This document shows, in pieces, positions 9,201 through 47,600 of a DNA stretch of 64,000 nucleotides (the first letter of the stretch is position 1; every line of letters starts with the position of its first letter). The notes beneath the pieces were generated by a model. That model was not told where the DNA came from. It was given only the letters and a program-made list of their open reading frames with translations, and ran no database searches. The stretch is from Ascidiella aspersa (lineage: Eukaryota), in NCBI GenBank assembly GCA_963924565.1, contig OZ004614.1, forward strand, positions 8,556,001 through 8,620,000. The letters run 5' to 3'. Position numbers and translations under genes: made by a program.

Positions 9201-9814
9201 TCCGTTGCTGAGATAAAAAAATAAGACGAGCTAAAACTCAGCAAAGTGGCTATTTACTATCACTTTATCTGGCTTAAAACTATAAAATACAATGTCTACA
9301 TCAGCTATTAAGTGACCGCTCGGTTACACAACAGCCAAACACCCTACGACAATTTTTTTGAACTTTTTTTATAGTCCGCAACTTCGGGGATAGGCCCTAC
9401 CGTAAATTTGATGCACATTTTTATTAAATTATAGGCTCTATAGTCAGGTATTCTTTCTATTACTGCTCACTCAATGTACTAAGCCGGAATAGAAAGTAAT
9501 AATTTTATAAATTTATGTCAGATATTTTTTCGTCGGCACACAAGGCAACCTTATATAGTATAGCGCAGAGATTGGAAAACGCTGATTTATGCCATAGTTT
9601 TGTATTTCAAGTCATCTGCTATTTTTGGTTTGTCAATTCGTTTTCGTCATTCGTGGCAACTGGCAACTAGCAGCGTAAATTTATTGTTTGTTTCTGTCAT
9701 GGGGCACTAGAAAAACGCCCACAGCGACTGGCAGGCTAAAAATAGACATCTTTTACGCTATAAAGCACAGTAAACGTATTCGCGGTTTTCTATTCCTTGT
9801 CTAAATAAAAAAAC
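2840..9814. repeat. Recent 3.5-kb direct tandem duplication (copy 1 ~2840-6318, copy 2 ~6341-9814)
   Basis: Identical 71-aa ORFs at 3578 and 7077 (offset 3499); the whole blocks align with only scattered SNPs and 1-bp indels. Confidence 0.97.
3598..3900 (+). mobile_element. Dispersed repeat family, probably a non-autonomous Helitron/Helentron (copies ~7097-7400 +, ~21045-21295 -, ~49965-50290 +, ~53000-53228 +)
   Basis: Shared gccgctgttttggcacc hairpin, GGTTAGG-rich segment, aggcctgattttggcca, tcttattccga repeats and ggctgga end; no TIR or TSD. The family assignment is inference. Confidence 0.6.
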
Positions 9815-24900: not shown

Positions 24901-27900
24901 ATATGTTAAGTTTCGATGTCGATATATAATCTGGGTGAAAAAAGTGTGATTAGTTTTTTACTCATTTCGTTGGGGTCTTGTACTCTGACAAGACACATGT
25001 GACTGAAATTGACTTTTACACAAACCGTTTTAATCCTTTTAATTTTATTGGATGACAAGTAAACAACACAAACGTTTGCTGCCTTTTGCCACTATTCTAA
25101 CTTTTCCATATTCAGCTTGCTGTCTACCAATCAATATTATGGAAATTGCCTTTCTACAGAAATATTCGAGCGCTTTCTATCAGAACGTGGCATTCTTACA
25201 TGGCACGTCGAAAACTTTCACCGCTACTTGCTGCCAATTCCCAAGGAGGTGTCTCATTTTATCGACCATTTAGTGGAGAAACACAACAGACGAAACTATG
25301 TGAGTTTGATTAAACGACTTAAAAGATCTTTAACAAAAGCGGCTGAGGACGCATAGGTAATACACACAACTGCTAGTAGGTCCTTTTTTAACCTAAAGAA
25401 ATGCCAGTTAACATTAAACGGCAGACATTTTGCAATTTAAAGTGCATATAAGTGACACAAGTCACCGGTGCATTCCGAGAGCGTACATACATACTGGAAA
25501 TAAAAATAAGACATTTGCTTATTTGTCGGAACACACGTTTTCTCCGATCTATCGAATCACTTTTTTTTTAAACATTCTTCTATTATGTTTTGTCGCTCTA
25601 CATCAAATTGACGTACCATACTATGTTTAAACTTGTAAGATAATAGCAAAATATGCAATGCAGCTTGACAACAAAATGTAACCTAAACTGAAAATAGCGT
25701 ATAGTCAATTCGTAATAATTATTAACGTGGAATAAGCTTCGGTGTGCACCTTCGGCATGATCCGCATCTTTATAACTGGCAATGTAAAGCCACCATAAGA
25801 CGCATTAACAAATGATGAAATCCTATAATTTTACCTGTAATGAAGGATCGTCTCGGATATTTTAATTAGTTTTTATTCTTTCTAACCCTCCTATCGTATT
25901 TAACCTACCAGCTGAGTGTCTCAGTCCATCAGATCATAATTTAGGTTAGTTTATAGTACATGCGGTGAATCTGCCTAAAAATCACGAAATCTTCTATCTA
26001 CGTGCTACAGTCACCTGTTCAAAGCCAGTCAAGCAGGGCTATTGTGTACGAAAATATTTTCGTTCCAGGTATCATTCAAAGTGGGAGAAGCGCCATTTAA
26101 AACTGCTATTTACAACAGGAAATACACGTAAGTTAGTAAACGTAAAGCAGTTACACACACTGCATGTGTTTTTGGCCAATCAGGCGATTAACTTAAATAG
26201 AATGCATCATTGGACAATTTCTAATGTTATGTCTTTTAAGTGGGCCGTCGTATACCTTTACAACATTCGCAACACATCCTTTTGGAGCAATGTTTCTGCT
26301 TAAAAGCAATTCTAGCCTTGAACGTTACGTAATTTCGGTGAGCATACGATTTTATATTTTATTGGTTAAAATTTTTAACAGATTACTGAAAATGCTACAT
26401 TCTTAAAAGGTATATTCAGATTTCGCTAGATGTAGCAAGGTTGAAGATTTTCATGGATCTGTTACTTGGCTTAACTACACGATGAAATATGGAGGTGCGC
26501 AGACATTTTCCACCAGGACTTCAACGGCTTGTAAAATCCTATTTTTCTTACCGCTGACTACGGTAAGAAGTCTGGAATAATTATTTTGTGAGCCTTGGTA
26601 ATTCTCATTTTTTTTCTCCACTTTGAAAATTGCCCTAAACATGCAAAATAAACTTGACATGTTTTCATTAATTAGGCTATTCAATCAATTCAAAAATATC
26701 ATACAGGGTTAATGATATGTGATGTTCAAACTAAAATGCGCAGTAAACTTTACCTTTTGTAAAGAAGTTAAATAATGTGAATTTATTTTCGTTCTTGACC
26801 ATCTAAGACTGTTTATAAGACAGATACAGATAAAACATAAAATCATTTCTTAAATTTTTACAGAAATATATAGCCTATTTCGCCGACGAACTGACGATGC
26901 CTTATAGGCGAAAAATATAATTCTGTAAAATTTGTTTTTCTGTTTTAATAAACAGTCTTAGATCATCTGAATATTTTATTTACATTTTATTGTCTGCAGG
27001 AGATTCCTTACTTCCTAAAGTGTTTCAGTTTTCTTGACCACATTTTAGTCTTTTACAACAAAAATCATAATGGTTCTACAGAAACTCTTTTGAGAAGCAC
27101 TTAAATAGAAAGCTATCGAGAAGTGACCTTGTCAAATAAAATATTACTGGGTAAAAATACAAAGAAGTAGTAATAACTAACGCATATTTATTGTTAATAA
27201 CTGTGAAAATAATCATTTCCAATACAAGTTTCCTTCATAAAATTTAAATCACAATATTGGATGCAAATCATCAATTATTGGTAGAGGTATCAGCTTTTCT
27301 AAAGTAAATATAAAAATTCAAATTGAAGTCCATAATAAACATGCCTTGTCCATTCCGTTGATCCATTAGGGGAGGTGCGGGACCCATGGAACGGATTTGT
27401 TTTTTCCGTAATATCTTTCGAATTACAACTCAAAAACACTCGCTGTTATTTTCTTTGGAAAGCTTACAGCTATGGATACCTACAATCCCACATGGAAAAA
27501 ATAATTTAAATCTGACATATCCTTCTAAGTTAAAAAAAAACTTTTTTTTTCCATTGGTCCCACCCCACAGGACTTATGGGACCTATGGAACAGAGCATGA
27601 CTGCATCTCAAAAGACTGCGCTGAGTATTCGTGAAGTGTATAACTACTCTGTTAATGGTGTATTAATAGTGGCACAAGAAAATGTATTTGGAGAAATTAA
27701 ATAAAACACAGGGAAACAGGCACACAATGCTGAAATGATATTTTTTTTATTTCTGGTCTAATTTGCACCCCAGGTTTATTATATCAATTGTTTTTATTTT
27801 TTAGGAGAACATATCAAAATATAATAATAATAGTCAAATGTACGAATTTGTCGAGTACCGACTCTGACTCTACAGCCTGTATTCAGCCCAAATACGTAAC

Positions 27901-30900
27901 TAAATACGGTAGATGTTCAGCAATCCACTTATAGGGTTATCATATAATTCATCCACTCACAATAACTGGTTCGAAGATATCCACCATATTCTATTCCGCA
28001 TGTTACAAACTGCAATTGACGGCAATATTGGTTTTTGGTACTGCGCATGCGCACGTCGGACACGGGAATCTGTTAGTGTTACGTGGTCTGGTCTTACTCG
28101 AGTCTCGAGTCCGAATCCTTCGAGGCCCGAGTCCGACTCCGCACCCCTGGTCCTCAGTGAAACAACCCATTATTAGATGTTCTTGTCTTAAAAGTTGGCA
28201 TACTAATATCCTTAAAACCTAAAAATATGATTAAAAAATTTTCAAGAGACCAAGGGAACAAACTGTTCCAAGGGTCCTCTAATCGCCATTTTTAATAAAA
28301 ACACTCATGACTAGCCAGTACTCTGAACCAAATTAATTAAACTAACTTTCAACCTGTACCTAGATAACCCCTCTCTCCACAAAAAAATATTCACTGATTT
28401 ACAATTAACTTAAGACTATTAAAACAACTTACGAATGTCAAGCTACAAAGTACATTTTTCACTTTTTTTTTGTTTAGTACATTTTTCACCCACAAAAGTG
28501 AAAAATTGGATTAAATCACCCATTCCAAAAGCATGCTACAGAGTTTTTGGAAAAAGTTCTTAGCACAAAATCTCATCTCATTCCCTCAACCTAAATTTTA
28601 TTTAGTTCTGCCAACAGGGGGCGCAATATGCCATTGGTCCATTGGTCCCTATGTTCCATGGATCCAGCACTTCCCCTACGTGAAGGTTTCTATGTAATAT
28701 TAACAAATGATGCTCACGAGTGTCATATATCCCAGCCTTGGAAGTACGTTAATGAAAGATCAGCGATTGTTTTCTAACTTCTAGAAATCAAATCGCGAAT
28801 TCAATTTGTCGTACACTTTTCCAACACGACGGAGTGAAGCAGTTAATGCGTCGGTTTGGTCTGGCGATGGGGCTTCAGTGCTTGGATACACTCTCTTATC
28901 AAAGTAAGATTTGTCCGCATTACGCTTGACGAACTGATTTGCTCAATAAATATGTGATTATACATCTTCTTGTTTGACAAAATGTGAACATGTGTGAAGC
29001 TATCCTTATTTTGATCAACGGTGTTATACATACTTTTTATATTGGGATCCATAATGCAAACACATTAATATCCGGCTAATAATGTTTTAGATAGTAGGCC
29101 TACAGTTATAACTCTTGTCTTCTGAAGCAACTTTTATTGATTTAAACGAACTATGCAGACCCGTCGGAATAAAATGTTCAGAAGATGAAATTAAGACCGC
29201 AATGCGAACAATGATGCATATCATTTTGGGAGGTGATAAAGCAGGTAAATTAAGGTTTTGTATTTTAACATCTTTTAGTCCTACGTTCCACTTTTTCATT
29301 TAACGATGTGACTGAAAATCATTTTCGAATAAATTGTACGGCATATTTAAATCTAGTTAGAGAAGCAAAACAACTAAGTGTACAGAAAGCTTAAAACATT
29401 TCTGCGGATTTTACCAATAAATTCCTTGTAATTTGGCATTTTCGACAAACTGCCTCACTAATTACTTCACTCACGTGAATTTATTTCAAATTCCCAGTCT
29501 TTATATTATTTGATTTAGCTTAAATTAGACTAGGTCATATTGTCCAACATGGTTTACTGGAATGGAAAACCTTTTCCACTACGAAAACAACAAAGAAAAA
29601 ATCGTGTTCCATCGAATCTCCTGTTAAAGTTAATGAGAAACACCTCGGTTAATTCGCATTTATTTTTGGCTTTTTTGTCGATCCACCTCAAAAAAATTGA
29701 TGTAGATAAAAATGCCCTGCTTTTTTGTTGGGCGCTAAATTTTTAAAAGGAGTATTCTGTATCTTGTAAATTGCATGTTTTACTTTATTAAAGAAATCCT
29801 TGAGCGCGTTCGATCCAACTCGTGTAATCTCACAAGAGACGTCGCACATAATTACCCCTTCCCGTTGCCCACCCATTCTGAGGAAACCCTAATGAAAGAA
29901 GGTGGAAGATATTCAAAGGTGGAAAATGTATTCAAAACAGGAAATCAGGTGAGCCAAATACAACCACGAAATAATGCGCAGAGCCTGACATAAAAGCCCG
30001 TTTTTGGTTTACCAACATATTTTAGATCAGTTTTTCTTAATCGGGTGAATCGATCACCCCAGGGTGAATAAAATTTTTGCAGGGGTGAACCAACCAAATG
30101 GAGTGAATAAGGGTGTACTGTCAGAAATTGAGGATAATTCCAGGTGTTCTGCGGATATTCCGGGTGTTCTGTTATATATAGACGAGATAGTTTTATTGTA
30201 TACAAGGGTGAATGAAAAAGACAAGGGTGAATGAAATATGGAGATAAATGCTAGGGGTGAACAAAACTAAAAAAGTTTAAGAAGCACTGTTTTAGATCAT
30301 GTGAACTTAACTGCCGTCGAAATGCTGCACCAATATATTTATTCATTTTCAACTAAATTAAAAAATATGTAGATATACATTATTGTACAAATTATATACA
30401 ATGCGAAATATAATGAATTGTCAGGATTTTAACAAGTGCCCTACATTTTGTGTTATAAATTGTCACCACCAACACAGGCTAATGGTAATTTACCGTATCA
30501 AACCTTAGTTCAAGTCAAGTTAGTCATAAAACGAAATCAATAAAGTCAACGCAATTTAAATAGATGTTTTGCTTACAATTGCTTGAGACGTTACTCTTCT
30601 GCATTTCAGTTGTATTTCAAAATTGGTGACGAGCCTCGACAACTTGTTGTGTACAACAAAACTTACAGGTCAGTAAAATGTTGGCAAATAACGATACAAA
30701 TTGAATTGTCTCGACGAAAAACCAATCGCTCCGGAAGGAAAAGTCCATTGTGTATTTATTATGAGTTAACTGCAATTAATTTGGAGTTTGTTTAGAAAAG
30801 TGGCGTTGTCCTTTATTTGGATGATTTTGTCTTCAGCGGTATTATTTAAAGGTTTTGTTAGCTTTTGACTACCGCTGGTTTTCGTTAATCTATACCAAGA

Positions 30901-33900
30901 GTTCCTAAACTGTGGTCCATGAACCCCTTGGGGGTTCGCAAACTAGTTTTAGTGGACCCATAAGTACCTAATTGAAATATAGTGAATTATTAAGAAATAT
31001 TTAAAGTTTCAAATAAACAGTGTTGAATAAAAATTTAAACGTTTTAGAACTGACTGTATTTAGACTCTATTTTACTTTTACATTTTTGGACATAAATAAG
31101 TCTATCTATGAACTCTATTTGTATTGTGACGTCATTTTTGAAAAAAGTTTCGCCTAACGAAGCAAAACTAAATTTTAGGGGTCCGCAGCAAAAATGTTTA
31201 AGAAACCCTGATAAAAAAAATAAGTTTCTTAATTCTTTTTTTCAGAGGTCCATCGTATACATTTGCAACCTTTGCTGTACATCCGTTTACAGCAGTCTTT
31301 CTTCTAAATGAAAAATCGGGTCCTCAACATTACTCAATAGAGGTGTGCAAAACACGTTTTTCGATTGCATTTCATCATTTAGTCAACGTAGTCTTAGCGT
31401 TTACCTATTTCGTCTGGATGACTTTGTCAAATTTACAGGTGGTCTCCGAATTCGAAACAAAAGTCCGTGGCTTGTTTGAGACGTTCGAAGGCTCGGTTTT
31501 CTTTCAAAACTACACTCTCAAGTATCGAGGCACGCAACTGTCCTCCAAAAAGGATCCAACGGCTTGCGAAGTTTACTTTTTCCTGCCGCTCACTCCAGTA
31601 AGTGGTAGCTGGGCCCAACTAGGGATGTCTGATTAATTATTTTTTGCTACTCGGCAAGTTGGATAAAAAGTATCGCGATCTTATCCCATACCGAATAACT
31701 TCATTACTATTATCAAATAAGCGATATAGTTGAAAATGTAATAAGATTTCTTCCAGTTTTTTTTGTCATGATTTGCTTTTAGATAAGATGTTTTAGTTAC
31801 CTCCAGTCGCGAACCAACTTTTTTTAAAGTGCACCTTTCAAGGTTAAAATCGAGTACATTGCGGTTATAATTTTAATAGGCCAAACTTGGAGAGTATTCT
31901 GGATAGCTAACAGGAAAGGCTTTTGGGAAACACTTTTTGTTCCGCTTCAGAATTCAAACCGCACTCTCGTCCTGTGGCCAAAAGAGCGCGAAATTCCTTC
32001 GTATAAACATGGAAGGAAAACAGAAAATCTTGCTTTTGTCCGATCGGGAGGCGGCAAGGCCGTGTTCGGATATACTCTTCTTTCGAAGTAAGTTTCTCAT
32101 ATGTGACTAAAATTTAACGGTTCTAAGCGTTTTGTTGACAACAGTCCGTGTAAATAATTTTTCAGTCAAAATGGCTCTGCTCAGAAGGTAAGGGTGGTAA
32201 GAGTGGTAGGCTACGACGTCCGCAGCAGGCACAATAGGAAAACGCAGTTTCTTAAAAAAAGGATTTTTGTTAAGAAACAGGGGTAGCTATTTCATGAGAT
32301 TGAAGGGAACGGTAGTCGTGAAATATAATCTACAAGCTAAAGATAAACAAAATTTAATTTTCTCTTTAACCAAATTTAAATAAACTCACACAAAATGCAT
32401 TGTTACTCCTTGCTTATCTGTTCTTGAAAGCACCCAATTAAACATTTAAACAAAGTTATATCCATTCATAGCAGGTGCATTCATGTTACTCGTTTGTTTC
32501 TAAATAAGTGCTGTTACGTTGAGAAATAATGGTTGCTCGACCAACGATATATCAACTTCGCAGGCCTTCTGGTGAGAAAATAGCCATAAAAGAAATCAAT
32601 GAGACGATGTTTGCCATGATTCATATCCTTGTGGGAGCTGATTACTCAGGTAAAGTCGCTCGTGTTACGCTATACATATGTTTGTGTACAAGTTTTGACA
32701 ATCAGTCAATATATACGTGCTTTCATGTAATTACTTAGTTGCTAGATAATAATATATACCGGTGCATTGCTAGATAATACTGGTACACTTTAGCCGCGTG
32801 TCTACATTAATGGGTAAATTAAAATAAAAAAAGAATACAATCTACATTTAATTTACATTGCTACATGTCGTTTATTTGGTGTTTTTTATTTGAATTATTG
32901 CTTAGAATCGGACGAACCAATTTTAATGTAGTTTTGTTTTATTGTTATATCGGTGATTTGACTTTGAGTTGACTTGCTATAATAATAATGAATTGACTTG
33001 GACTTTATTTTGGAAACTGGTGACTTGGACTCCGATTTGACTACGAATTAAAGACCCGACTTGATCTTAAGGCATTTCACGAATGGCCTGACTGAGACTA
33101 TATTCAGTTTGAAATGACTTGTTTACAACTCTGTAGATTGAAAATCATATTTTTTGCACAATTATCCGCTACATCTTGAAATTAAAAATAAATGATCCAT
33201 ACTCTGCACATCTATAATTATAAACTAGGCCTATACCATATAAATTATCGCCTTAAAAGAGGCCAATTTTGTACACACATTGCAAATGGAATTTTACTTC
33301 AGCAAAGGAACACAAGATAACAAGGCAGATTATTTAGGAAATTCACAACATAAATATTGGATGTTTCCATTAATTTGTCAATGGCAAACATTCATAAAAA
33401 TTATGCCGAAAAATCGCACAGAAAATTTATTTCGTTAAAAAGACTAACAAGAAAACGCAAATTGCAAAACGATGACATTTTTTTTAGTGTCCTCCAAAGA
33501 CCATGCATTTTTTTGAAAAAGAGGACATATGTTATACCTATCATAGATAAACCTATGTGCAGTATACAATTTATTTATACAATTAGGTTTCATTTTGTTG
33601 AAGTTGGATTATTAAACTGGTTGCGAGATAACTATTGATTGTTGGTAAAATGTTATATCAAATTAAGTTTGGAGTCGTTGGACATCTTGGTCGGCCAGCC
33701 CTATCAGTTGTCGCGTGTACGGGATCCAAATAAGAAGCCGAAGTTGCACCAGCGGCCCATGTCTGCAAACTTCCATCACTTACCAAACCCAAAGTCGTCC
33801 ATTCAGTGGTTTAAAATGCGTCGCTAAAGGTATGCATTAGTTTATTCTGTGCAAATCGAACCATTTTGTTGGTGAACGATTATTGACAGATAATTTGTAC

Positions 33901-36489
33901 CTTTAAACTTCAGAGTTTTCAAGGAAGAAAACTATAGCATAATAAAATCAAGTCATTCAGTTTATTTCAAAGCTATCGTTTCCCCAAATGTGAAGCAAGG
34001 GTTGAAATATATTTGACATAGGAGTATCGTTACCAAAAATCGTATTGCTTTAGAATTGTTCGAGCGCTTTTTAAAGATGTCGTTCAGTCTTAGACGGCAA
34101 ATCGACAATTTTCACTTGTATGAGTTTCCGAGATTTCGGAGAGGATCAGCAACTGTAATATATGACGGAGGAAGGGATATGTTTGACGTAGGAAATAAGG
34201 CAAGTGCCGTGTTCTTATATAATGTGTGTGAGAAATACTGTTATAAAAAATGTTTTAGATTTTAGAGCATTTTTTAGTATGGCGTTTCGGGTTGCTTATT
34301 CTTACTGTTCTATGAAATAGGTATTATCGTGACTTCATAGTTAATTAAGGATAATCTAACTACCGTGCCGTACCAACCACCGGTTCAGCTTCTGCACTTC
34401 TGCACCAGAAAAAAGCCCCCACATTGCTAGACTCTGTTGTAAAATATATATGACTTCTAACATAATAGACCTGGTAGATTTTGATTTATAAATAGTACAG
34501 AGATAGTACTTTGTAGCTTTTTCTTTATCGTTTATTAATTGTTAATTTTTGACGATATAAAAATACAGCGTGTCCTAAAATAAATAGAATATTACATTTT
34601 AATACCAAAACAAAACTCGTTTAACTTGGTAACATTTTATGTGAGCTCATATAATGAAATCTTGAGTTCAACTGAGTTATGAAAAAGTTAGGGCTATAAA
34701 TGACTTTAGCTATAAATAACAGTAAGGAATCAAGACACGGGGTTCTAAACTAATAATTTGTATTTATTACTGCTAAAAACTGATTTTATACCTAACAAAA
34801 ATATCTTAACTGAATACTATTGTATATGGGAGCCACATACTAGAGTTTGTAGTGGACCCCAACTGGCGAAGATACGGCTCTGCCTAAGTCTGAGTTTTGA
34901 AATAAACGAACCGATATGATTCTGTGATGTTGTTGTCATAAATAAAATCCCCTCAGCAACCCATCTGCATGGTGCAACTGGGAGCTGTCTTGGACAGAAT
35001 ATATACATTAAATATGCAACAGATGCAATCAGGTATATTGTTACTGTTTTTTTTTTTCATTCTCTGTCCTCAATAACTTACACGAATATTAAATAACTCC
35101 GCGACATTTATCTATACTTTTGAAAAAATATATTCATATACAACTTTTAATGTTCAGCAATAAAGTTATATTTCCAGGTTTACTTCAAAGTGGGAAATGC
35201 GAGACGTCAACAAGCAATTTACGACAGAAGATACTCGTAAATATGTTAATTTTATTAGTGGTTGTCCCTTTAAAACATGTAGCATACCTTTTTTTTTTAA
35301 ATTATTATCAGAGGTGCATCGTACATTTTTGAAACCTTCACCGCACATCCGTTCACCGCATTTTTTGTTATTGATTTTGAAGCCGGGCCAGGGCAATACT
35401 CTATAGAGGTAACATTGATGAAGGAGAGATAAGGACTTTGTTCGAAAACGACCTTCTTAATTTAGCCTAAAAATAACGATTCTCTGCACTTTGAAAGGTA
35501 AATTCAAATCTCGGAGCTGATGGAAGGGGCAAGTTTGGTACTTTTGATGGTTTACTTATTTTCCAAAACATTATCTTGCAATATGGTGGCGCCCAAGTGT
35601 ATTCTGCCGGCGATGCAACAGTTTGCGAGGTGTACTTTTACCTGCCCCTCACTGGAGTAAGTATATTCGAATTCTTAGCCAATTGTTTAACGATGTTTTT
35701 TATCTGAAAAATTAAATCATAATGTCTGCTAATAATTTCTGAAAGCGACAAAAACTATTTGCCTATTCGGCAAATTTTCTAAATAATTTTAATTTCCCGT
35801 TAATAGGACCAATTAAGTTTGTCTATCAAAATTTTAATCCCAAATATATTGTGCTTTGAAAAAGTTCGGCCATGTTGATTATGCTTGATGATACTACAAA
35901 TTTAGTGTTTGATACCTGGTAGGCTACACCAGAATTTCAATAATTGGTATTTGTCATTAAATTAGCAGGCAAAAAGGCCAGACATTGGAGTAGTTAATGA
36001 TTTCGTTCCACTTCCTACCCTGGTGGGATATATTTTAAGTTGGTTAAATCATATTTAAACATTCCGTGAAAAACGCTGGTTTTGCTTTCAGGATACGAGC
36101 CCCAAACTAATTGTGTCAACACCTGATCGAAAGAAGTATTATATGAAAAACAAAGCGTCAGTTCAATCCAAAAGTGGTCTAGCTGTTCTCGGATACACTC
36201 TCTTGTCAAAGTGAGAATTGCACTTTAACAAATAAAATCAAACCAATAAAAAGTTGCATCAACTGAAGAACTTAATAAAAAAATGTCATCACTGTTTGTA
36301 TACCCTAATTACACTCAATACTAAATATATGCCACTCGTTTTCTAAGAAAAAGCCAAAGTACGTTCATTTGCTTGTCTATTTGGAATGTAACTCAAAACT
36401 TTATCCTTTGCAGAACTGATGGTGCTGAAATTTCCAAAGAAGAAATCAAGGCAACTATGTCTAAAATGATGAAAATTATTTTGATTTAG
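9930..36489 (+). CDS. Large multi-exon gene: six copies of an unnamed ~220-aa domain plus three TSR (thrombospondin type-1) modules; probably secreted; start codon not resolved
   Basis: Forty AG..GT(GC)-bounded exons splice into one open frame ending at TAG 36487-36489 (about 1,490 codons from 12199). A 36-nt phase 1-1 exon at 9930-9965 (xFASETTATFAK) precedes R1. Each repeat uses six exons with intron phases 1-0-2-0-0-2-1. The third exon is 97 nt in all six repeats; the last is 86 nt in five. Shared motifs: YNKTY, HPFTAxF, NYTLxYxG, CEVYFxLPLT, GYTLLSK, EIxxTMxxMxHIILG. Confidence 0.88.
10767..11238. mobile_element. hAT-type MITE
   Basis: TIR CAGTGATTCTCAACC..GGTTGAGAATCACTG, TSD gtttatat/ggttatat, GCGGCTC subterminal repeats. 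Confidence 0.85.
12199..15076 (+). CDS. Repeat module R1 of the + strand gene
   Basis: Exons 12199-12329, 13226-13281, 13961-14057, 14164-14328, 14656-14795, 14991-15076: DVVERLRSNSANLTGNVENF..AIYNKTYT..TPFTALFLL..NYTMQYGG..CEVYFFMPLFP..AVLGYILLSK..MMTMMHIILDGDRS. Confidence 0.85.
15245..15996. mobile_element. hAT (Buster/Charlie-like) non-autonomous element, same family as 53855-54586
   Basis: Ends CAGTGGTCGGC..GTTGCCGACCCCTG, perfect TSD ttctaggg, GCGGGCC subterminal repeats. Confidence 0.88.
16773..19054 (+). CDS. Repeat module R2
   Basis: Exons 16773-16909, 17237-17295, 17883-17979, 18077-18238, 18438-18556, 18969-19054: EIFQRIRSN..AYNKTYT..HPMTAMYFL..NYTLKYEG..CEVYFYLPLTS..AVIGYTLLSK..MLTMLHIILGVDQS. 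Confidence 0.85.
19340..19498 (+). CDS. TSR module T1 (single phase 1-1 exon)
   Basis: VASTWTTWSADGSSCRQKGTQSRTRNCTSGHCLKTSNIVEVQKRPCSAPAWVE: WxxW, QxRxRxC and a terminal Cys as in TSP1 repeats; flanked by ttag and gtaag. Confidence 0.85.
20107..24136 (+). CDS. Repeat module R3
   Basis: Exons 20107-20234, 21732-21790, 22158-22254, 22753-22911, 23601-23719, 24051-24136: GIFKRVRAN..VYFKVG..RPFTAMFVL..NYTLQF..CEVYYLLPLTS..AVFGYTLLSK..MMSMMHLILGIDQQ. Confidence 0.85.
20885..21669. mobile_element. hAT-type MITE with a nested Helitron-like repeat (21045-21295)
   Basis: Ends CAGTGTTTCGTAACC..GGTTGAGGAACGCTG, perfect TSD ctatatag. Confidence 0.75.
21898..22093. mobile_element. hAT-type MITE (related fragment at ~27850-28149)
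   Basis: TIR CAGGGCTGCGGAGTCGG..CCGACTCCGCAGCCCTG, TSD acttgagc/acttaagc. Confidence 0.85.
24598..24756 (+). CDS. TSR module T2 (single phase 1-1 exon)
   Basis: VWSHWSQWSSCPDNCPGQQTQIRLRSCIIGPCPQNNSRVERETRPCSIPVWVA: canonical WxxWxxWxxC...QxRxRxC...ExRxC. Confidence 0.9.
25160..29244 (+). CDS. Repeat module R4
   Basis: Exons 25160-25299, 26069-26127, 26241-26337, 26410-26562, 28785-28903, 29159-29244: EIFERFLS..AIYNRKYT..HPFGAMFLL..NYTMKYGG..CKILFFLPLTT..VLGYTLLSK..MRTMMHIILGGDKA. Confidence 0.85.
26801..26963 (+). repeat. Fold-back inverted repeat with a hammerhead-like core in its loop
   Basis: atctaagactgtttat..aaatttttacagaa..tatttcgcc pairs with ggcgaaaaata..ttctgtaaaattt..ataaacagtcttagat; CTGACGA-T-GCCT(TAT)AGGC-GAAA at 26891-26913. 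Confidence 0.6.
27369..28676. mobile_element. TIR element flanked by TA, containing a nested MITE fragment
   Basis: ta-GGGGAGGTGCGGGACCCATGGAAC .. GTTCCATGGATCCAGCACTTCCCC-ta. Confidence 0.7.
29794..32649 (+). CDS. Repeat module R5
   Basis: Exons 29794-29948, 30610-30668, 31246-31342, 31439-31597, 31951-32087, 32564-32649: EILERVRSN..VYNKTYR..HPFTAVFLL..NYTLKYRG..CEVYFFLPLTP..AVFGYTLLSK..MFAMIHILVGADYS. Confidence 0.85.
30028..30289. mobile_element. hAT-type MITE
   Basis: Ends CAGTTTTTCTTAA..TTAAGAAGCACTG, perfect TSD ttttagat, GGGTGAA repeats. Confidence 0.8.
33668..33829 (+). CDS. TSR module T3 (single phase 1-1 exon, divergent)
   Basis: VWSRWTSWSASPISCRVYGIQIRSRSCTSGPCLQTSITYQTQSRPFSGLKCVAK. 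Confidence 0.82.
34054..36489 (+). CDS. Repeat module R6 (C-terminal, ends at stop)
   Basis: Exons 34054-34199 (GC donor), 35178-35236, 35312-35408, 35498-35656, 36092-36210, 36414-36489: ..IYDGGRDMFDVGNK..HPFTAFF..SNLGADGRG..VYSAGDATVCEVYFYLPLTG..AVLGYTLLSK..MSKMMKIILI*. Confidence 0.85.
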
Positions 36490-38620
36490 GAGTAAGATAA
36501 CAATTGTGTACAAAATCTTAGCGTAGTAAACCAATCATTTTAAAATGCCTTAAGTCTCAAGTCTCGTCTTTATTCAAGTCTTTTTAAAAAAAATAACAAG
36601 TCTCTGTCCAAGGCAACCATTTGATTACGTCCCAGTCACCCCATTATTAGAGAAAAGTCCACTTCAAGTCCTTGCCATAAGAATACAAAGTTAAACTATT
36701 AAAATTTGCAAAATCATCTGTGTGAGCAATATATCAACTAAAAATAACCCATAAAAATCATACAGCAAGCAAATTGTTTATGTGTAAATGTTAAGATAAA
36801 ATTCCTCAACTTTATAAAAACTTGTTTAATCAAAATATCTTATTTCAACCTGTTTGTTGGAAAGATCCAGTCTGCAGGCTTACAACATGCCTTTTCACAT
36901 TGAAATTTATTTATACACACTGATAAATAGGCTTAAAACGACCATAAAACAACGTTTTAAGGTTTAACTAAACGGACTAATCACTGAAATAAAAATACTA
37001 ACAGTCATTTCAATTTTGCTTTAGCTTATGTGGTGTTTGTTTTGACTGAATTGATCTTCTAAACATAACTTTGTTTGTTTTTCTGAATTAAAGAAAGAAT
37101 ACGGTAACAATTAGGATTATAAAAAAATTGAATGCAAGTCAACCAACAAAGCTTCTTATTATGCTTATTGCTCGCGCTTACCATCCTTGTATTGCAGTAG
37201 TTTTGCGACATTTTGTTTTTATTGAATTTTGCTATAAACATGACAACCAAATGTCATGGATTCTCTGTATTTTAACACGAAGCAAAGTATATCGGACGAT
37301 GATGCAACAAAATGTTTGTGGTGAAAATTGAATCTATGTTTAACGGTTTATTAAAGAGTATGTTGAAAATCCCTTTATAAAGACAAAGAATTTTAAAACG
37401 TAGGCCTCCTTCGCACTTTTTGTACGAAATAGTTATGTAGCAAAAAACTAAATCTGTTAAGTACAATTTTGTTGTTCAAGGAGCTGCCAAAGCTTTCAAA
37501 AGTGAGTTTGGAATAATCTATTGCTATACTAGTTGGTACCAGCCCAAACTAGATTTTTTATGTTACTGTTTCGTAGGGGATTTTCGCAGTAACATACTTG
37601 AACTAGCTAAAACCGGTGATTTAACCTCAGTTTGGGTGCGCAAAGAAATTAGCAAATCTTAAAGAATGGTCAAGTTACCGGTACCATTTTTTACGATAGT
37701 CAACATTTTAAGTAGTATTAGTTTTAAATGGATATATTAAGAACCAAAATATTTTAGAGAATTTTAGTTATAATATTGTCTTAAAGGAAATAAATAAGCA
37801 AATACTTAAAAAAAATTTTTAAAAATGGATTTTTCAGCAGCAACACATTGGAAGTTAGTTGTTGTTGTCAACATTTTCCGAAAATAAGTTCCTGTGCAAG
37901 GTTTATTTTCCTAATATGTTAGAACCATCTCACATAGGATACAACAACTATTTAGGAAATGTAAAAGACATTACCAATTTTCGCGAATTCTGAAAAAACA
38001 CAGTTTTACGTTTTATCTAAAAAATATTATTAACTAATTTTAAAAATCATTTTTTTTAAAAAGCTTTTTAGGAAATGTTTGCCTCTTTTAGGCAAAACTT
38101 GTAAGCGCCTAAAACCAAAAGCCTAATTCCTTTTATTAGACTTGTTAGGTGCTGTTACAGAACTAAAAAATCTTTACATATATAAAACCTCTTGCAACAA
38201 AACTGATTCGTGCAAATCTGGATGAAGATAAAAGGCATACAGCTATACATAATTTGCGTGTAAAATGTATATTATAAATGAGATAACAGTACAAAATGAA
38301 TGATGCGTAGAGCCTACATGTAGAAAATACATCGGAATCATTAAAATGATTAGACGGCCGCCACAATATATACAAAAATATAACGAACAGGGCAACTATA
38401 ATTTAAAAACCATCAAATGTTCTTCACCTATAGTGTCATTACCCCTGAGGATTCATATTTTAAAAAATTATAACTATTTGACCTTGCAACTAACTATGCT
38501 AAACCTATGCCAATAAAATCGCCAAATTACTATATTATGCGAAATTATCTATATCAGCGATCCAATATAAACTGGGTGATTGTCAGGTTTCGGCGATGTT
38601 ATAAACCATTGTAACATAGC

Positions 38621-41600
38621 TTAACACACGTGAAGTGACACAACCAATACCAAAGTGTACAGATATGTATAGAAGAGACAAGTTGACACTTTATTTGAGC
38701 CCGAAGTGGTGGACTGTAAAGTTGGACATGAAGCTACATCAAGTATTAGAGGAAAGCCGCTCGACAGAGAAGAACAGTTGAGAGCCTCTGAAATGTAGGC
38801 ATGCTCAATCGATAAGGGCGGGTAGTCAGCTCGGTCAACCTGACAAAGAGCAAATAAAAAAATGTTAAAAATTAATGCCGCAATCACAATTCTATAGTTT
38901 TGGGTTAAATACTTATAAAATAAAACTTCTATTGAACTAAAAAATATGAGATTGCTGGTCAAAAATATTTAAAATTAATTTGGTACAATAAATCAATTTG
39001 TAATTGCAATAGAACCATTAGAGCAACAATTGAAATGATAAATGATCCTCTGTTAAAATGGGTAGGTTCCCAACAAAATAAGACTGTGTGGTATTTAAGT
39101 TGGTCTTCCATCAACATTATTTTCGGTGATACTTATTAGACACCTAAAGAAAATCCAGGCTATCCCGGGCATTTTAGTCTTAAGTTATCCAGTCTGAGGA
39201 CCACATGTTGCCCTTTAATTCTCTGAATTTTTTTTTTTTTTTGAAAATTTATTTCACAGATCTCATAATTGTTTTATCCTATCTGTAGTATAAGCTAATG
39301 ACAACTGGAATGCTACATTAAATTTGCCTAATACATCTTCCAGGTGAATAATAAACACAGAAAGTACAACCAACACGACGATTTTAATCCATCGCGCCAA
39401 TTTCATTAGTTAATTTTGCTTAAAACAACTATTGCAATGCAGTAATCTATCGTTATGGTAATTGGAGCCCACGGAGGAATTCGGCAAAAATAACTGAATC
39501 AATGAGCGAAAATTGTTAAATGTTTGGCAGGCATTGAGTAAATAGTTGGGGCAAACCTGCTCTATTCCGCTAGACTAGAGTATGTTGACTTACGTGGGGT
39601 GGATTTGGTAACGAAGGCATTGTGCACAGCTGAAACCTGTTCATTTTGCGCATCGCATCACTCAGTTCATTGCCGGAATCTTCGTTCCAAGTCATCTGCA
39701 AAATATACCGTTGATATTGATCGAAAGTTTTAAAGAATTATAACATTATAATGGCCAAAAAATAAATACTTAACCAATAGAAAAATAACTAAGGTACTTT
39801 TCAAGATGTTTTTTTCTCGGTTTTCTTGAAATATTGGGTTTCCTTCTTTTTAGGTAGTTTCTGAACAGGTAGCTACTTTTCAGGTATAAATGTATGTCAG
39901 CCCTGAAATAATTTGCAGAGGTAAAACGAGTTCAACTGCAATTCCTTCCCACTAAAAGTGTTAGGGCCTTGTTTTGTCAGACATAACGTTGTCCACTCAC
40001 TCACCTCATTAATATTTTGCAAGGCAGTCTTTCCGGCAAATTCCTCTGGCTCCAAGATCATTACGTCATCAAGGGTTATGTTCCAATAATAAGGCGGAAA
40101 TCTGTCAAAAGAACTGCAGATTAAAAGTAATATTCTTTTGTGTGCGTTATATATGTATGTAAACGAGTATTTTTGTTGTTGTCCGTGTATGCGAGATTGT
40201 GTATGTAACTGTTCGTGTGTACGTGTTTCTGTGAATGTGTGCGTGTGTGCTTGTGCGCATGAGTGCGTTTTTTGTTTGTTTGTAAGTTTGTTTGCTTGTT
40301 AGTTTGTGCGTTTGTTATTCTGCACTTGTGTTTGTGTAGTGATTTGTCCGTTTGTGCGCTTGCGTGCTTGTGAACTTATGTGCTTGTGCGTTAGTGCGTT
40401 AGGCGTTTTTTTCACTTGTGCGTTTGAATGCCTTTGTGTTTGTGTGTTACTCCATGAATCTAATACTTGTTCGTTTGTGTTGTGGGTAGGTGTGAGCAGG
40501 ACTAGGATAAATACTTACTCGTAGTCAGTAAAACCAAAGTATTTCATGAAAGGATCGAGCATAGGTGCAGTCTGACACCAGGTTACTGACAACGATGGAT
40601 AATAGAAGAGGGCTGCTTCGCACATTTCTTCGGAGGTCCTTAAGCCACTCTGGATAATAAATATAGCTTAGATTTAAAGCATGAGCATTTACAACTTTAG
40701 TTATCAAAATAGTAAATATTATTATACAGGCTACATACCACTGTTAATGCTAAACAAAATAGAGTTGTAGCCTACATTAGCGTTCTTTACTTGAATTAAC
40801 CCGAGATAACGGTAGATTCACATAAATTATGTTCAAGGGACAAACTCATCAGTTGGACCCGGGCCCGAATATCATAACAATATTTTACTTTATTCAATTT
40901 TCAGCTATTCACATATTGAACTATACAGGCCTATAGAATCTAGACAACACATTGTTGTCGACACGAAATATGCAACTTACTGTCACCCTCTGGTTAACAC
41001 CAACAAACCTTATACAGAGCATTTAGAGAGTTTACTTCATGTGTCAAGTTAAAAGTTTAGAAATAATTATTCTAAGAACTATACCAGATTCACAACAGGG
41101 CCGAGATTTTTGCTTTTCGGTATACACAAAATGTAACCAGTATTCTAGTCACGTAACAAAATCCAGGGGTGGCTTAAACTCAATTGATTTTTAAATCGCA
41201 CACACAAGAAGCAAGGATCTCACCAAAGAAACTCCGTCTCTGTCCATCGTGTTGTAGCTGCAGGTCACTTGCATTGCGTCCCCCTTCCTCACGATTCTTT
41301 CCTCGTGCAAGACTCTCGTCTCTTGGTAGTTGAAATCGTACGACAGGTCTTGGGCCAAATGCGGCAGTTCAGTTCCGTTTCTACAGGTACGTGCAATTGG
41401 AGGAAATCCGACAATCGTGAAGCTTACCTAGCCTACTGAATTATTGAAAAAGAATTTAAAGAAAACTGGATTAAAACTTGAAGAAAATCGAATAAGATAA
41501 AACAAACCGAAATTTCGCATTACAGCTAAATAAGGTCTACAGCCTATAGTCACCAAAATATGATCAACATCCTGTTATTTAACTGTAACTTTAGAAGATT

Positions 41601-44600
41601 TAAACCTTTTATCAAGCTTGCAAATCTGCTTTCAGTGCAATGCAAACAAATCCTAATTGTTCATGCTTATCATCACGCCCATGAACAAAGAGTACAGCAA
41701 AACAATCGCCTGATAAATAATGGGTTTAAAATATCCAAAAAAAAAAATGTAACACTTAATTAACTCTGATGGCCTACGGATCCATTATCGGGCGTTTGAG
41801 AATGTCCCTCTCCAAAATGTTGTTATGTATCTGGTAATTACTGGATATTTATCTATTTTAAATATCCACTACTTCCATAAAGCCCTGGTAAGTACTTTTC
41901 TAATTCACCAGCAATTTACAATTTATTCAACAAACATTTGTCTAAAGTCGGACTTTGCAAAAATTGATAAAATGTTCAATAATTAAATATAAACTATAGC
42001 CATTGACCCGTTATTGAAACCGAATATCACGATAATCATAGATCAAGTTTTTCGATTTTCATAGCAAACTATCATTTCTCTTAAAAAAAGTACCACATTG
42101 CTGCAATACCTGACGTGCTTCACAGTCATCTGTCGTCCCAGTAAATGACTGTGCAGCAATACTGCAAAAACTTTGATGTTGTCCATTTCGTGATGCTCCA
42201 TGGCCTAGAAGATTTTTTACATTTAAAAAATGTAGCCTATGAGACGGGGTGTGCTTCACAATAGCAAAAATGTAGCAAAACCAGAAAAACACATTAACGT
42301 TTCTATTGGTTTATCACACAACATCAGTTACTGGATATTAGCTACGAGTCACTGTTTAATATATAATTTTATAGAATATATTTGAGGCCCACATGAAACC
42401 AAGTTATATATGACGGGATTCGTTCATATAATCATATTGGTCATGCCTTGGACGTAAGTTATTTTGCATTTTTTTCACTTGGGTGGAATTACAAGCTCTG
42501 TTAACATCACTGATATGTACATTTGTACAATCGAAACGTATTTTTTACAAAAAAAGCACATATAAAACAGTTAAACGTTTAAAGTGGCCTGAAATAATTC
42601 CATATCTAGAGATAAATGTGGTGGAATTGTCGCACGGCGAGAACGAATCATGTTAACATTCGTTAAGAGAGTTTTTAAAGTTCATTTGCTTTATATGATA
42701 CTGATTTTCCATCAACTTGTCATAGTTTCAGAGAACTTTAATTGGAGGGTCCAAGTATTTGCAACCCAGGTAATGTTCATTTAAACAACCATACAGCGAG
42801 AACATAAAATGCTCCGAGATAATATAATTATATTTACCTTTTCCAGGCACTGGTCTGTGCATTCGCCATGATCGATGTACGACTCCATGCCAGGCGGAAA
42901 TGCCTTCAGAGCCCCGCTTACCAAAACACCCACCGTCATTATCGAGGCGTCGAACTGTCGTAGTTGGGGCGTGAAGGTGAAACGCAGGCCCGACGAGTCT
43001 ATGATGTCTAAAGCGGAAAAACACTGTAACGGAATCTTCTAACAAAACATAACACTTTACAGATGATCGTTGTTATCTAGACTAGACGAACGTTTATGTA
43101 AGTTAATTACGTACAAACTAGGATGAAAAATTCCTGCTAGTGTGCTCATCTCAACACACTATTGAGATCGCCCTACTACCAAGGAGGGAAGAAATAGACT
43201 TTTAGATTTCTCTATGTGTCACTGATATTGCACATGACACAATTTGTAAGAGGGTATCTGGTTATATATATATTAATACACCGCGATTGAAGTAATTCGA
43301 AAATTTTCTTCCAAAAGTATACTTTTAATATTGTTGCCAGTTTGTTTAACTGTGTGAATAGAAGCGCTTTTTTAACTTGATTTATTTTTTTATATGATTA
43401 GTTAAAATAAAAATTATCTTGGTAAATAGTAAGTCGGACAGATACATAAGTTTCGCTGTAATGGCAGGAAAGTATGAATAATTGCAAAAAAGATATACTA
43501 TATGTATTAGCGTTCCTATAGCGAATGTCAAAAAAGGAGTTTAAGAAAACACTGGACCGGTCGCTTTAGTTCAAGTTTGTGCATTTTTAGGACTATATTT
43601 GTCGCTGTTGTGTTTTATGTTTTTCAACCAAGGTTTTAGAATTTTTTTAAAATTTTCCCTAAAATGCATCTGGCGGCACAACCTATATACATGACCATAA
43701 TGAATACTGCTCTGGACAGATGAAATTAGCTTTACACATATAACTCATACCTGACATCAAATTTGGATTGTCGTAGTGAACTTCAAGTATTAGGTACTCG
43801 TGTGGCGTCGACGACTTAAGCGGGTAACCGACGTGGTCCGGGTAGTAGAATGCCTGTTTATTACAGTTAAACGCGCTTAACGTAACAAAATTCATTGCCG
43901 ACAACAGGCTAACAAACGAATTTCTAATTATTTTCAATTGGTAAACAACGTTTCCTCTATAACATTCTATATTAATGAAATTCTTTTTTAGGTGTGCATG
44001 ACTATTCCAAGTGACTTAGACAGTCCTAAATAAATTGCCAGCTTTATTTACGCACTTTTTCAACTTTATTTTTTTATCTTTATATAGGAAGGCAAATCGG
44101 CACCTATTCGTGAACAAAACTTTACTGCGCAAGTGGTAGGTGCGCCTTAGATGGATGATGGATAGTAAACTCTATAGGTAGTTGAGAGGTAATATCTCAC
44201 TAGACTCTAAAAGTTCATCCCGCATTACTTTCATCGTGTTTTCCCAGAAACATCAGCCGCTTTGAGCTTATTAGAATAGACCGATTAATAACCACAGTTG
44301 TTGACCGTATAATTCAAAGAAGTGCTTGTTAACAGTGTACAGCACCGACCATTCAATAATTCACCCACCGTCCCTCCCACAGCCCAGCTGTGAAGTACAT
44401 TACGGCAGCTATCGGTACCGGAAGGCATGTTGCTTCCGAGACACTCAGCATTATTTCCGTCGTCAGACACGTTCTGAAGAACAAAAAGTAATACGTTACT
44501 TTTAAGTTGGAAACAATGTTTCCGTACTAGTTTTACGTGGACAGATTGAAAGATCTTTATTTCTACATAAATTTCCTTTGTATAGATCAGTGATTCCCAA

Positions 44601-47600
44601 ACTGTGTGCCGCAGCACAAGCGGTTCATACTTAAATACGCACTACCCATTACAAATTATTCATATTGAGACATTTGCGTAAAGTTTGTCAGGGCGGTTGT
44701 AAAATGACTTTATTGTTGTTCTGTTAAAAGTTGGCCGCGAAGTATTTAAGATAGTTTTAGTGTGCCGCGAGCCAAAAAAGATTGGGAACCACTGGTAGGC
44801 CTATAGATTGTGAAGTAGCAAAGCTATCGCTGGCTTTTAATTTACATCTGTTTTGTTTGAAGATGCATTAAAGGACTATTAGACTAAAATAAAGGAAGTA
44901 AATCCTGTTTAGTATGATTGTAAATATGTAAAGTTTTTTTTTTTAATTTGCCTGTTAATCGAACAACAATAGCCGTTTAGCAGTGCACATATTGCGAACA
45001 CCTGTATGGATACTGCCTATCTGTCAATGCAAACAAATTTGTTTATCAGCTGTCGAACTAATAATGCTCATATAATTGTCCGCAAATTAACCTGTTATTA
45101 GTACTTTCCAACATTGTAATCATAGAATAGGTGCAAGAGGGCAACAAACGCTACAGTCCTAAAAATATTGGATGAATACGATACGTGGATGGTTTCCACT
45201 TTGATACGCTTTTATATGTAGAAGGTTGTACAGATGGTATATTTCTTACAATGTCTTCTGGAATTGAGCAGTGGTATATCAAAATGTGGTGAACAATCAG
45301 TTCATTTCCAGCCTGAATAATCGGTTCCACCTGTCGAGAAAAAAACAAAATATAGTGCACAAACAAAACCCTTGTTTTGCCATTATATTCATCGAAAATG
45401 TTCTTCTAAATGACACGAAAAAAACGATTTTCTTTGAAAGCGAAATGATTTAATGTTTGACAAATTAAAAATATTTCTTTGACGAGGAAGATATCTTCGT
45501 TTGTAGGCTAATGAGCACTTGGCGCAGTGTCGTAAAATTTGAAGAAGGCCTTAACAAATTTATTAGTTTCAAAATAATTATAGCCACTTGCCCACTTGGA
45601 CCAACTTCGGTCAGACTCTCCCAAAATGCACGTTCTGTCAATTAGGTAATAAGTTAATAACTGATGAATTTGCTGTTTGCGTTATAACATAACTGAGTAT
45701 AATCTCGTTTTTTTTTGAGCCCCCAAAGTAAATATCCCTGATCCGCCCTTAGTTAGGAATATGTATTTACCGTTCGCGAAATACCCTTCACTTAATTAGC
45801 ACAGATCAATAATAAAGTCTTCTAGGCCAGGCGGCCAGCAATTCCAAAATGTCGCTTACAAACGTTCGGTGAAAACGTAGCCTAATTATGCAATGACAAT
45901 TGTGACATACTTTAACTAGGTGATGCTTGTCGTCAAGTCGCGGCATTTTCAGCAGCCTGCAGTTGTAGTAGCTGTCCACCGACGGAACATGAAAGCGATC
46001 CATCAGGAAGTCGTAGGTGTCATGAGTTTCGCCCGGAGGAAAACTGGAATCGTCCAATCCGCTCGGATCAAGCAATATTAGACTTTTGGCGCCTTAAAAC
46101 AAAAAAAGTGTTAACGTAATGCAACATTGACACTTCTTTTATTAAGGGATATCCTATATTGTGTTTTATTCTCGTATCGATAACCGATATTTTGACCCGA
46201 ATGTATCGAGATTCGATCTAAATCCGAATTACCGCATTACTTGCGAAAATAAGCAAAATTGATCAATTTGCAAGAAAATTTTTGGCCCATATCTCATTTC
46301 GCTTGCAGAAACAAGCCAAGGGAAAGTACAACTTAATATATAACCAAAAACCAACAAACAAAAATGTAAGCAGTTGTTGAACAGAGCAATATAAAGTAAA
46401 ATACTTCACAGCAAATTCAGAACAATAACTAAAAAGTATAGCCGTAATACGTTTATATTGGCAAATTATCACAAAGGACAGAAGTAGCTCTTTTAGGCTA
46501 ATTAAATTATTGGACGTCGACAACTACCTACCTCTATTAGTTTCATGATAGTCGTTTGAATCTATATCGTCACCAACTGGATCGGAATTTCCCCAGGCAT
46601 ATATCACCTTCAACGTATCTCCCTTTACAACACATTATCATTTATACATATAAAATTAAAAAAAATTCTGACCAATGGATATAACATTAACATTAATCTA
46701 ACTTATTGGAGAGGCGTTTTTAGTGCAAAAAAGAGAAAGCCTACAGATGACAATGGCGAAATAAACCGCCAAAGACATAAAAAAAACAATGGCGCAAAAG
46801 ATATTTGCTTCTATTAGTTTTCAAACATTACCAAACGCTGAAACTTTAAGGCGCGAACGCGTCGTATCAGCAAACAATTTTTCGAACATCAGCCGAATAA
46901 GGGCGTTAGGCAGACGTGTTCAGTTTTTATGACAGGCCGATTTGTGAAAAACATGAGATGTAGTTTAACAAGAGAAATGACCTAAACGCAATTTGCTGGT
47001 TTTAACACAAAACTAATCACAATATGTTACAAATAAAAACTACTAGCAAAGATTGGAAACGCATGTTGTCTTCAAATGCAAAACATACATTTTAACTGTC
47101 TTTAAGGGAAGCAAAGCGGATTAAAGGTACCAAAAGGAATGTAAAGGTCGTGTAAAGGTCATGTAAAGGTCGTGTAAAGGTCGTGTAAAGGTCTCCATAT
47201 TGCGCAAGAGGAAAGCAAGAACAGATACATCAATTTTACGACCGGCTTTGCCACAAACAAAACACAGCCATAAAGTTGCGAAAATGTTTGCCATTTACTT
47301 GGCCAGAGCGTTTTTATTGTTTACAGCGCAATGTCTTTCACTTTAACCATCCGTTGCCTTGTCGTTAACGGAAGTTGGCTTAAAAATACGGTATTTTGTT
47401 ACGGAACAATAAAAGCATTTATACAACACTTCTGTTCAAAGTTTAAAATTTCAATAACGGACATATGGTTTATTTTCCACTTCCGTCCAATGTTACGTAG
47501 GCAAATATCAGTAATAAATTATGATAAATACGAAAGACCATGCAGTTATGTCCAGTCACAAGGAAAATAATGAAATGAATGCAGTAACAAAAAAACAACT

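Follow-up and report, generated by a model that had tools for sequence, protein, structure and literature searches.

Gene Model and Domain Architecture

The window, the whole stretch of 64,000 bp that was analysed, lies on contig OZ004614.1 (C8) of the ascidian Ascidiella aspersa (GCA_963924565.1, positions 8,556,001 to 8,620,000 of the forward strand). The DNA is AT-rich and eukaryotic. A gene of 41 exons was modelled on the plus strand between 8287 and 36491, giving a single open frame of 1,549 amino acids. All of its introns are GT-AG except for one GC donor after 34199. In the protein a signal-peptide-like N-terminus is followed by six repeats of 215 to 231 amino acids (R1 to R6), along with three TSP1-like exons. 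Each repeat is encoded by six exons with identical phases, forming a phase 1-1 module, and the TSP1-like exons, also of phase 1-1, are placed after R2, R3 and R5. Pairwise identity among the repeats is 37 to 46%. The best PF00090 score of the TSP1-like exons was 20.4 bits, below the gathering cut-off of 21.6; the W-x-x-W and R-x-R-x-C pattern is present. No transmembrane segment, membrane anchor or long hydrophobic tail was found downstream of R6 in the gene model, and the protein is likely secreted.

Four joints of R6 were backed by RNA reads (14, 14, 17 and 18) from one stranded run with no tissue label. The joint from the third TSP1-like exon to 34054 had 12 reads with a loose end, and the joint 34199-35178 was not among the RNA joints listed. 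Because the identity threshold for reads was 90%, some of them derive from paralogues. Contamination was ruled out by the introns, the chromosome-scale contig, the orthologues and the spliced reads. The first exon is ambiguous because a 3.5-kb tandem duplication (2840-6316 and 6341-9813, 98.5% identical), either real or an assembly artefact, holds a candidate in each copy, one T apart.

A Five-Aspartate Site in the Last Repeat

The first-pass annotation had placed three Gly/Asp motifs in R6 only, and the alignment bore this out. Motif 1, IYDGGRDMFDVGN, is the end of exon 34054-34199 and is in frame. SNLGADGRG and VYSAGDAT, motifs 2 and 3, are both in frame within exon 35498-35656. R6 had been ended at 35656, which was too short, as two further exons follow (36092-36210 and 36414-36491). 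The alignment comprised 462 domains (472 were built and 10 with less than 70% coverage removed). The five site aspartates, D43, D47, D50, D112 and D143 in model numbering (window codons in Table 1), are 83 to 94% conserved in it, so the motifs are a signature of the family, as had been suggested. All five were present in R6 compared to one in R5 and none in R1 to R4. The core residues Y65, HP[FM], CE[VI] and GY.LLS were found in all or nearly all six repeats, in agreement with the conserved hydrophobic core noted earlier. Traces of the motifs had also been described in R1 to R5; R5 has DPT, but R3 and R4 lack even the GN trace (RDY and RNY). R6 is 36 to 44% identical to repeats 2-8 of a Phallusia mammillata homologue, compared to only 23 to 34% for R1 to R5. 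Asp-to-His changes in motif 1, suggested by the read consensus before 35176, were not used; they are absent from every fetched paralogue.

Table 1. Features of the repeat gene in the window (positions in the window).
Feature	Position	Strand	Remarks
Candidate first exon, upstream copy of 3.5-kb tandem duplication	4866-4938	+	24-aa signal-peptide-like stretch, start as in paralogues
Alternative first exon, downstream duplicate copy	8287-8434	+	Same hydrophobic stretch; in frame only via ATG 25 codons upstream
Second exon, 12 codons	9930-9965	+	Kept in paralogues
R1, six exons	12199-15076	+	Site Asp 0/5
R2, six exons	16773-19054	+	Site Asp 0/5; loops diverge strongly among paralogues
TSP1-like exon, phase 1-1	19340-19498	+	Pfam E 0.13, weak
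R3, six exons	20107-24136	+	Site Asp 0/5; loop divergence among paralogues strongest here
TSP1-like exon, phase 1-1	24598-24756	+	PF00090 E 5.8e-4, 20.4 bits, cut-off 21.6
R4, six exons	25160-29244	+	Site Asp 0/5
R5, six exons	29794-32649	+	Site Asp 1/5 (DPT)
TSP1-like exon joined to R6	33668-33829	+	12 RNA reads; PF00090 E 0.017
R6 exon a, motif 1 (D43 34164, D47 34176, D50 34185)	34054-34199	+	GC donor; RNA depth
R6 exons b (35178-35236) and c (35312-35408), framework strands	35178-35408	+	Joint 35236>35312, 14 reads
R6 exon d, motif 2 (D112 35519) and motif 3 (D143 35612)	35498-35656	+	RNA reads
R6 exons e (36092-36210) and f (36414-36491, stop codon)	36092-36491	+	Joints 17 and 18 reads

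Downstream, exon-like pieces of a different gene were seen on the minus strand at about 39600-46100. A GC-richer stretch at 48000-50000 (GC 0.46) may be a mobile element.

Paralogues and Divergence of the Loops

Five further gene copies (A to E, with D and E covered by partial sequence) lie beside the window gene at C8 8.52-9.00 Mb. Additional genes with the domain were found at C8 10.02-10.21 Mb, and one at C2 25.73-25.79 Mb. Like the diversified recognition families, these genes form a clustered multigene family. The C2 gene has the site intact in 11 of its 12 repeats, as in the Phallusia and Ciona proteins, and is likely the ancestral form. On C8 motif 1 was intact in 7 of the 61 exons found, each in a last repeat by position. 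Motifs 2 and 3 were intact in 7 of 65 exons (one with motif 3 displaced), also in last repeats by position.

Nonsynonymous (dN) and synonymous (dS) divergence was obtained from NG86 counts. Loops were defined as the R6 motif regions plus one variable loop in exon e, with the remainder as framework, and loop dN was set against gene-wide dS. Between the window gene and copy A the loops of R1 to R5 had 64 nonsynonymous changes in 564 sites and 5 synonymous changes in 177, compared to 36 in 1,925 and 35 in 628 for the framework. The resulting ratio was 2.40 for the loops (P 1.1e-5) and 0.33 for the framework. Copies B and C gave loop ratios of 2.42 and 2.47, and without indel-bearing exons the three comparisons gave 2.5 to 2.7. 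Loop dN against A, B and C was 0.12 with a gene-wide dS of 0.05 and framework ratios of 0.33 to 0.44. Introns were 4.2 to 4.9% diverged between the window gene and the copies and loop dS was not raised. The R6 loops had a ratio of 0.3 to 0.9, with zero amino-acid changes in the motif-2 and motif-3 loops. In the C8 10-Mb cluster 78 nearest exon pairs gave 2.11 for loops (P 7.7e-5) and 0.64 for framework; 4 more pairs were dropped where the loop was not delimited. The intact C2 gene showed no excess (loops 0.87, framework 0.38; 19 pairs, 2 dropped). The NG86 counts indicate positive selection on the putative binding loops. Compared to intact motif-1 loops, site-less ones were slightly richer in basic and aromatic residues (K+R 0.15 vs 0.12, FWY 0.11 vs 0.08, D+E 0.10 vs 0.15).

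The proposal of one active and five degenerate domains was therefore borne out in part. Only R6 has the site, but "degenerate" is misleading for R1 to R5 because purifying selection acts on the framework of these repeats and the loops at the former site change faster than neutral.

Other features of the copies were noted. Copy E (C8:8996001-9006000), 411 kb away, matched the window gene at 99 to 100% identity in every exon compared and at 100% over 391 tested bases; it is either a very recent duplication or an assembly duplicate. An identical isolated R5-type exon d is found inverted just upstream of A, B and C (C8:8552588, 8735023 and 8861627, plus strand), with a similar match at C8 8963369. 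At its 3' end (36414-36491 and 37060-37140) the window gene reaches its stop a few codons before copies A, B and D do. It also lacks the AG acceptor that precedes the last exon in these copies. More gene clusters with the domain lie on C6 near 0.96-0.99, 9.18 and 20.9-21.0 Mb.

Distribution and Context of the Domain

The repeat domain is undescribed, outside curated families and widely spread. No family match above threshold was obtained in Pfam (including six single exons), NCBIfam or PHROG. Sequence searches of the PDB gave chance matches only, two query sequences gave no usable match in the ESM Atlas, and two gave none in a cultured-phage collection. No paper describing the domain or its insertion into intelectins was found by title and abstract start, although papers on Ciona intelectins behind a paywall may mention the latter, and the motif strings and the Ciona LOC number returned zero papers.

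Homologues outside animals had been anticipated and were found in bacteria, phages, giant viruses and one choanoflagellate. The domain was found at 78 bacterial loci (best 80 of 107 confirmed) and at 7 and 77 viral loci in two overlapping searches. At E up to 0.001 the family profile matched 1,574 representatives, an upper bound as the profile included intelectin columns; all 150 listed contain the domain. Those named among 30 matches looked up were 14 tunicate proteins (Ciona, Clavelina, Styela), one choanoflagellate and one cyanobacterium. Tunicate orthologues were found in Ciona, Phallusia, Clavelina and Styela.

Bacterial carriers are mostly Bacteroidota and Verrucomicrobia, with Zixibacteria, Eisenbacteria, Marinimicrobia and others. 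Their proteins are large and secreted, with type IX secretion system (T9SS) tails and Ig-like, HYR, PKD, CUB, LamG, F5/8-C or protease domains. On viral contigs 43 of 52 domains end at most 15 amino acids from the C-terminus. Many phage open reading frames of about 280 to 390 amino acids (loci L081-L158) consist of a short N-terminal segment and the domain, and in two viral proteins (P0188 and P0189) the domain is paired with a LamG-like domain. This layout suggests that the phage copies may be swappable receptor-binding modules. The partners of the domain in tunicate proteins are CUB, VWD, sushi and trypsin domains. Arrays of 7 to 11 intact copies per protein were seen. Intact and site-less copies are mixed in 42 of 91 multi-domain proteins, bacteria included, some only via truncated ends. 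The choanoflagellate protein (P0218, Stephanoeca diplocostata) has one intact and one site-less copy and groups with bacterial-type domains; these copies are possibly an independent acquisition.

The domain is also inserted within 11 tunicate intelectin sequences. The insertion point was located in P0003, where residues 2-123 and 373-455 match XEEL 49-170 and 182-266. The human and Xenopus intelectins compared lack the insert. Genes matching both the intelectin part and the insert were found in the Ascidiella genome at C3:31778879-31788349 (plus strand), 31735656-31742851 (minus strand) and 6810451-6824208 (plus strand).

Predicted Structure and Proximity of the Motifs

A bacterial domain (97 sequences) was modelled with AlphaFold2 and a structure was also predicted for a Phallusia intelectin, both standing in for R6. 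The bacterial model (predicted local distance difference test, pLDDT, 95.6) has N-terminal helices, a multi-stranded beta-sandwich and a C-terminal helix, with the motifs in loops and strand ends. The Phallusia insert (residues 134-355, mostly pLDDT 63-93; whole model 63.5) has the same order of elements, and the two models match the same three predicted viral proteins. The nearest solved structures were beta-supersandwich domains of carbohydrate-active enzymes, a weak resemblance with Z scores of 7 to 9.3 against a background of 7 to 8. The best of these, 7fe3, had a Z of 9.3 and a root mean square deviation (rmsd) of 4.6 A over 176 aligned residues with 10% identity. Foldseek gave no clear match in the PDB (template modelling, TM, score at most 0.35). 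No C-type lectin or PA14 fold was among the structural matches listed, which does not imply exclusion.

The site aspartates tend to be lost together, with 48 of 462 domains keeping at most two of the five compared to 3.9 expected if losses were independent. Mean-field direct coupling analysis (DCA) on all 462 domains gave D47-D143 10.3, D47-D112 8.0 and D112-D143 7.5, and D50 was coupled too. As joint loss alone could yield such couplings, DCA was repeated on the 369 intact domains only; N109-I146 (z 15.4), N109-V138 (8.0), N56-T106 (7.4) and G52-I146 (4.5) were coupled. From this covariation we infer that the three motifs sit side by side, as the first-pass annotation had expected, and the model topology is compatible with this. 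Conservation, joint loss and covariation all place the acidic residues at one predicted site, as in Ca2+-dependent lectins.

Origin of the Domain in Tunicates

A FastTree phylogeny of the 462 domains recovered a single tunicate clade of 48 rows (0.80), which joined 46 rows from viral contigs and 19 mostly virus-like metagenome rows (0.999). With IQ-TREE (LG+C20, 60 chosen rows) the support was 100/98 for tunicates and 100/99 for tunicates plus virus-like rows, and bacteria and the choanoflagellate fell opposite these. In this unrooted tree, which gives no direction, the tunicate copies thus fall with a non-animal clade and apart from their holozoan relatives. Horizontal acquisition, raised by the first-pass annotation, was favoured by the tree and stops short of proof; with long branches and a deviant composition of R6, virus-linked transfer is favoured, not shown. 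The favoured transfer would have run from a virus-associated lineage to the stem of the tunicates.

It is possible but doubtful that the domain was instead inherited vertically from a holozoan ancestor and then lost or missed in other animals, a question of origin only. Two copies in the choanoflagellate S. diplocostata would fit such descent, long branches might pull tunicate and viral rows together, and other animals could hold the domain as 150 of the 1,574 representative matches were listed. A grouping of tunicates with the choanoflagellate was, however, rejected by the approximately unbiased (AU) test (p-AU 0.018), each animal match named among those listed was a tunicate (7,986 candidates were scored), and the insert is missing from human and Xenopus intelectins.

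Tunicate genes from horizontal gene transfer (HGT) are described in PMC13390645. Like them, the window gene lies on a large contig (26.6 Mb) and has tunicate orthologues and RNA support. None of the eight HGT groups, in the part of that paper available here, is this domain, and six identifiers or terms were absent from the one supplement searched. The screen, as described in that part, used E below 1e-25 and a small database.

Proposed Function and Alternatives

Microbial lectin modules that depend on Ca2+, such as PA14/Flo/Epa DcisD and LecB, carry Asp/Gly loops at one end of a beta-sandwich. By analogy with these, from the chemistry of the site and the context of the domain, the domain is probably a Ca2+-dependent carbohydrate-binding module. 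The three Gly/Asp loops would come together at one end of the sandwich, where they would chelate Ca2+ ions that hold vicinal sugar hydroxyls. For the gene as a whole it appears moderately likely that a secreted six-repeat protein offers a Ca2+/sugar site in R6 and variable recognition loops in R1 to R5. A multi-repeat gene would have been duplicated in this ascidian lineage. Most repeats would have given up the metal site and their loops turned into variable binding surfaces under diversifying selection, with the last repeat usually retaining the ancestral activity as a constant anchor. R6 may then bind a common microbial glycan, mucus or tunic constantly. R1 to R5 would bind variably and independently of Ca2+ in an arms race, the opponents being most likely the microbes that a filter feeder encounters. 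Horizontal transfer from a virus-associated lineage would have brought the domain into the stem of the tunicates.

Several observations weigh against this combination of a constant R6 and variable R1 to R5. Some members do without the constant site: copy C has lost it in R6, and in several genes at C8 10.04-10.21 Mb none of the repeats is intact. Because the loop hypothesis arose after the variation was seen, the test cannot count as blind. With near-identical sequences, copies A, B and C amount to one comparison, and the excess is concentrated in R1 to R3 (R5 alone against copy D gave 0.95; fourth loop, only 6 of 144 sites). The C2 and R6 controls have few sites. The proximity of the motifs rests on covariation and topology rather than coordinates, and with no solved homologue the Asp cluster could equally be catalytic or structural.

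R6 could also be the sole active binding domain, with R1 to R5 as structural spacers whose site loops decayed under relaxed constraint. The family often mixes intact with site-less copies in one array (42 of 91 multi-domain proteins, bacteria included), and the loops of R4 and R5 differ little among paralogues. Relaxation predicts dN close to dS, however, and loop dN was 2.1 to 2.7 times dS in two clusters, with loop dS not raised and introns 4 to 5% diverged; such spacers are rather unlikely. A metal-dependent catalytic site, for example glycosidase or mutarotase-like, would suit the five conserved carboxylates and the best structural neighbours, which have a supersandwich fold and belong to carbohydrate-active enzymes (7fe3, Z 9.3). 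R6 would then be the sole enzyme and R1 to R5 pseudoenzymes or substrate-binding domains. Those neighbours are mostly accessory N-terminal enzyme domains with Z near background. The terminal position in short phage proteins, arrays of up to 11 intact copies, insertion into a lectin and neighbouring binding domains favour binding over catalysis, and an enzyme is considered very unlikely.

Instead of microbes, reproduction or allorecognition (egg coat, sperm, tunic) might drive the change of the loops through recognition of self and non-self. Positive selection and gene clusters are typical of such systems, and TSP1-like modules are common in matrix proteins. The variation measured here is, however, among paralogues and not alleles, and the domain also sits inside tunicate intelectins. 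Intelectins, of which there are 22 in tunicates, recognise bacterial glycans according to the available part of PMC6321704, and this is why microbial recognition was preferred; self/non-self recognition is judged quite unlikely. Expression of intelectins in the Styela endostyle is reported in the available part of PMC10980280.

Comparison With Known Systems

The window protein would work like the diversified lectin-type recognition families, yet is a member of none of those tested. Intelectins (X-type lectins; human ITLN1 4WMQ, XEEL 4WMO) are secreted, as is likely for the window protein, and also expanded in tunicates, and a tunicate subset, this genome included, has the domain inserted. The 1,549-amino-acid model lacks the fibrinogen-like GGGWTLV part and the intelectin-specific C-terminal part, both present in the insert-bearing relatives P0003 and P0004, while the solved vertebrate intelectins lack the domain. 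The galactose-mutarotase-like beta-supersandwich (N-terminal domains of GH65, GH94 and GH15, PL4, the YidC periplasmic domain) resembles the predicted fold in its twisted beta-sandwich followed by a helix (Z 7 to 9.3, close to background). It differs in rmsd (3.4 to 4.6 A, 2 to 12% identity), and the window-family domain is smaller, has an N-terminal helix and showed no shared motif. The PA14/Flo/Epa and LecB modules share predicted Asp/Gly loops on a beta-sandwich in adhesins or secreted proteins, but there was no sequence match and only a viral protein annotated as PA14 came near (TM 0.49, E 1e-4).

VCBP, the snail FREPs and Botryllus fester are diversified invertebrate recognition families, with which the window family shares clustered paralogues, modular exons and positive selection focused on loops. 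Where those families build on Ig, fibrinogen, sushi or C-type lectin, its scaffold is a domain that bacteria and viruses also have, and the window family would reuse a former metal site for diversification while the last repeat keeps the site. The HGT genes of tunicates (CesA, GH6-1 and the eight groups in the available part of PMC13390645) are also tunicate-wide, with non-animal relatives, chromosome-size contigs, introns and expression. The window domain differs in being shuffled and not an enzyme, and its nearest relatives are viral.

The domain family is uncurated and occurs across many bacterial phyla, phages and tunicates, and its five-Asp site is directly testable. It may represent a new lectin module and a virus-linked gene transfer not listed in the available part of the 2026 Ciona HGT screen (PMC13390645). 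Some tunicate intelectins bear a second, probably foreign domain. In tunicates, which are the closest relatives of vertebrates and have no adaptive immunity, the gene would be a concrete case of a predicted conserved ligand site converted to variable loops under positive selection. A more speculative view, offered tentatively, is that a glycan-binding domain dependent on Ca2+ and representing a new fold family passed from phages or giant viruses to tunicates, which grafted it into intelectins and other secreted proteins. In this ascidian it would have become an antibody-like scaffold for innate recognition, with tandem copies whose ex-metal loops are hypervariable and one constant C-terminal lectin copy.

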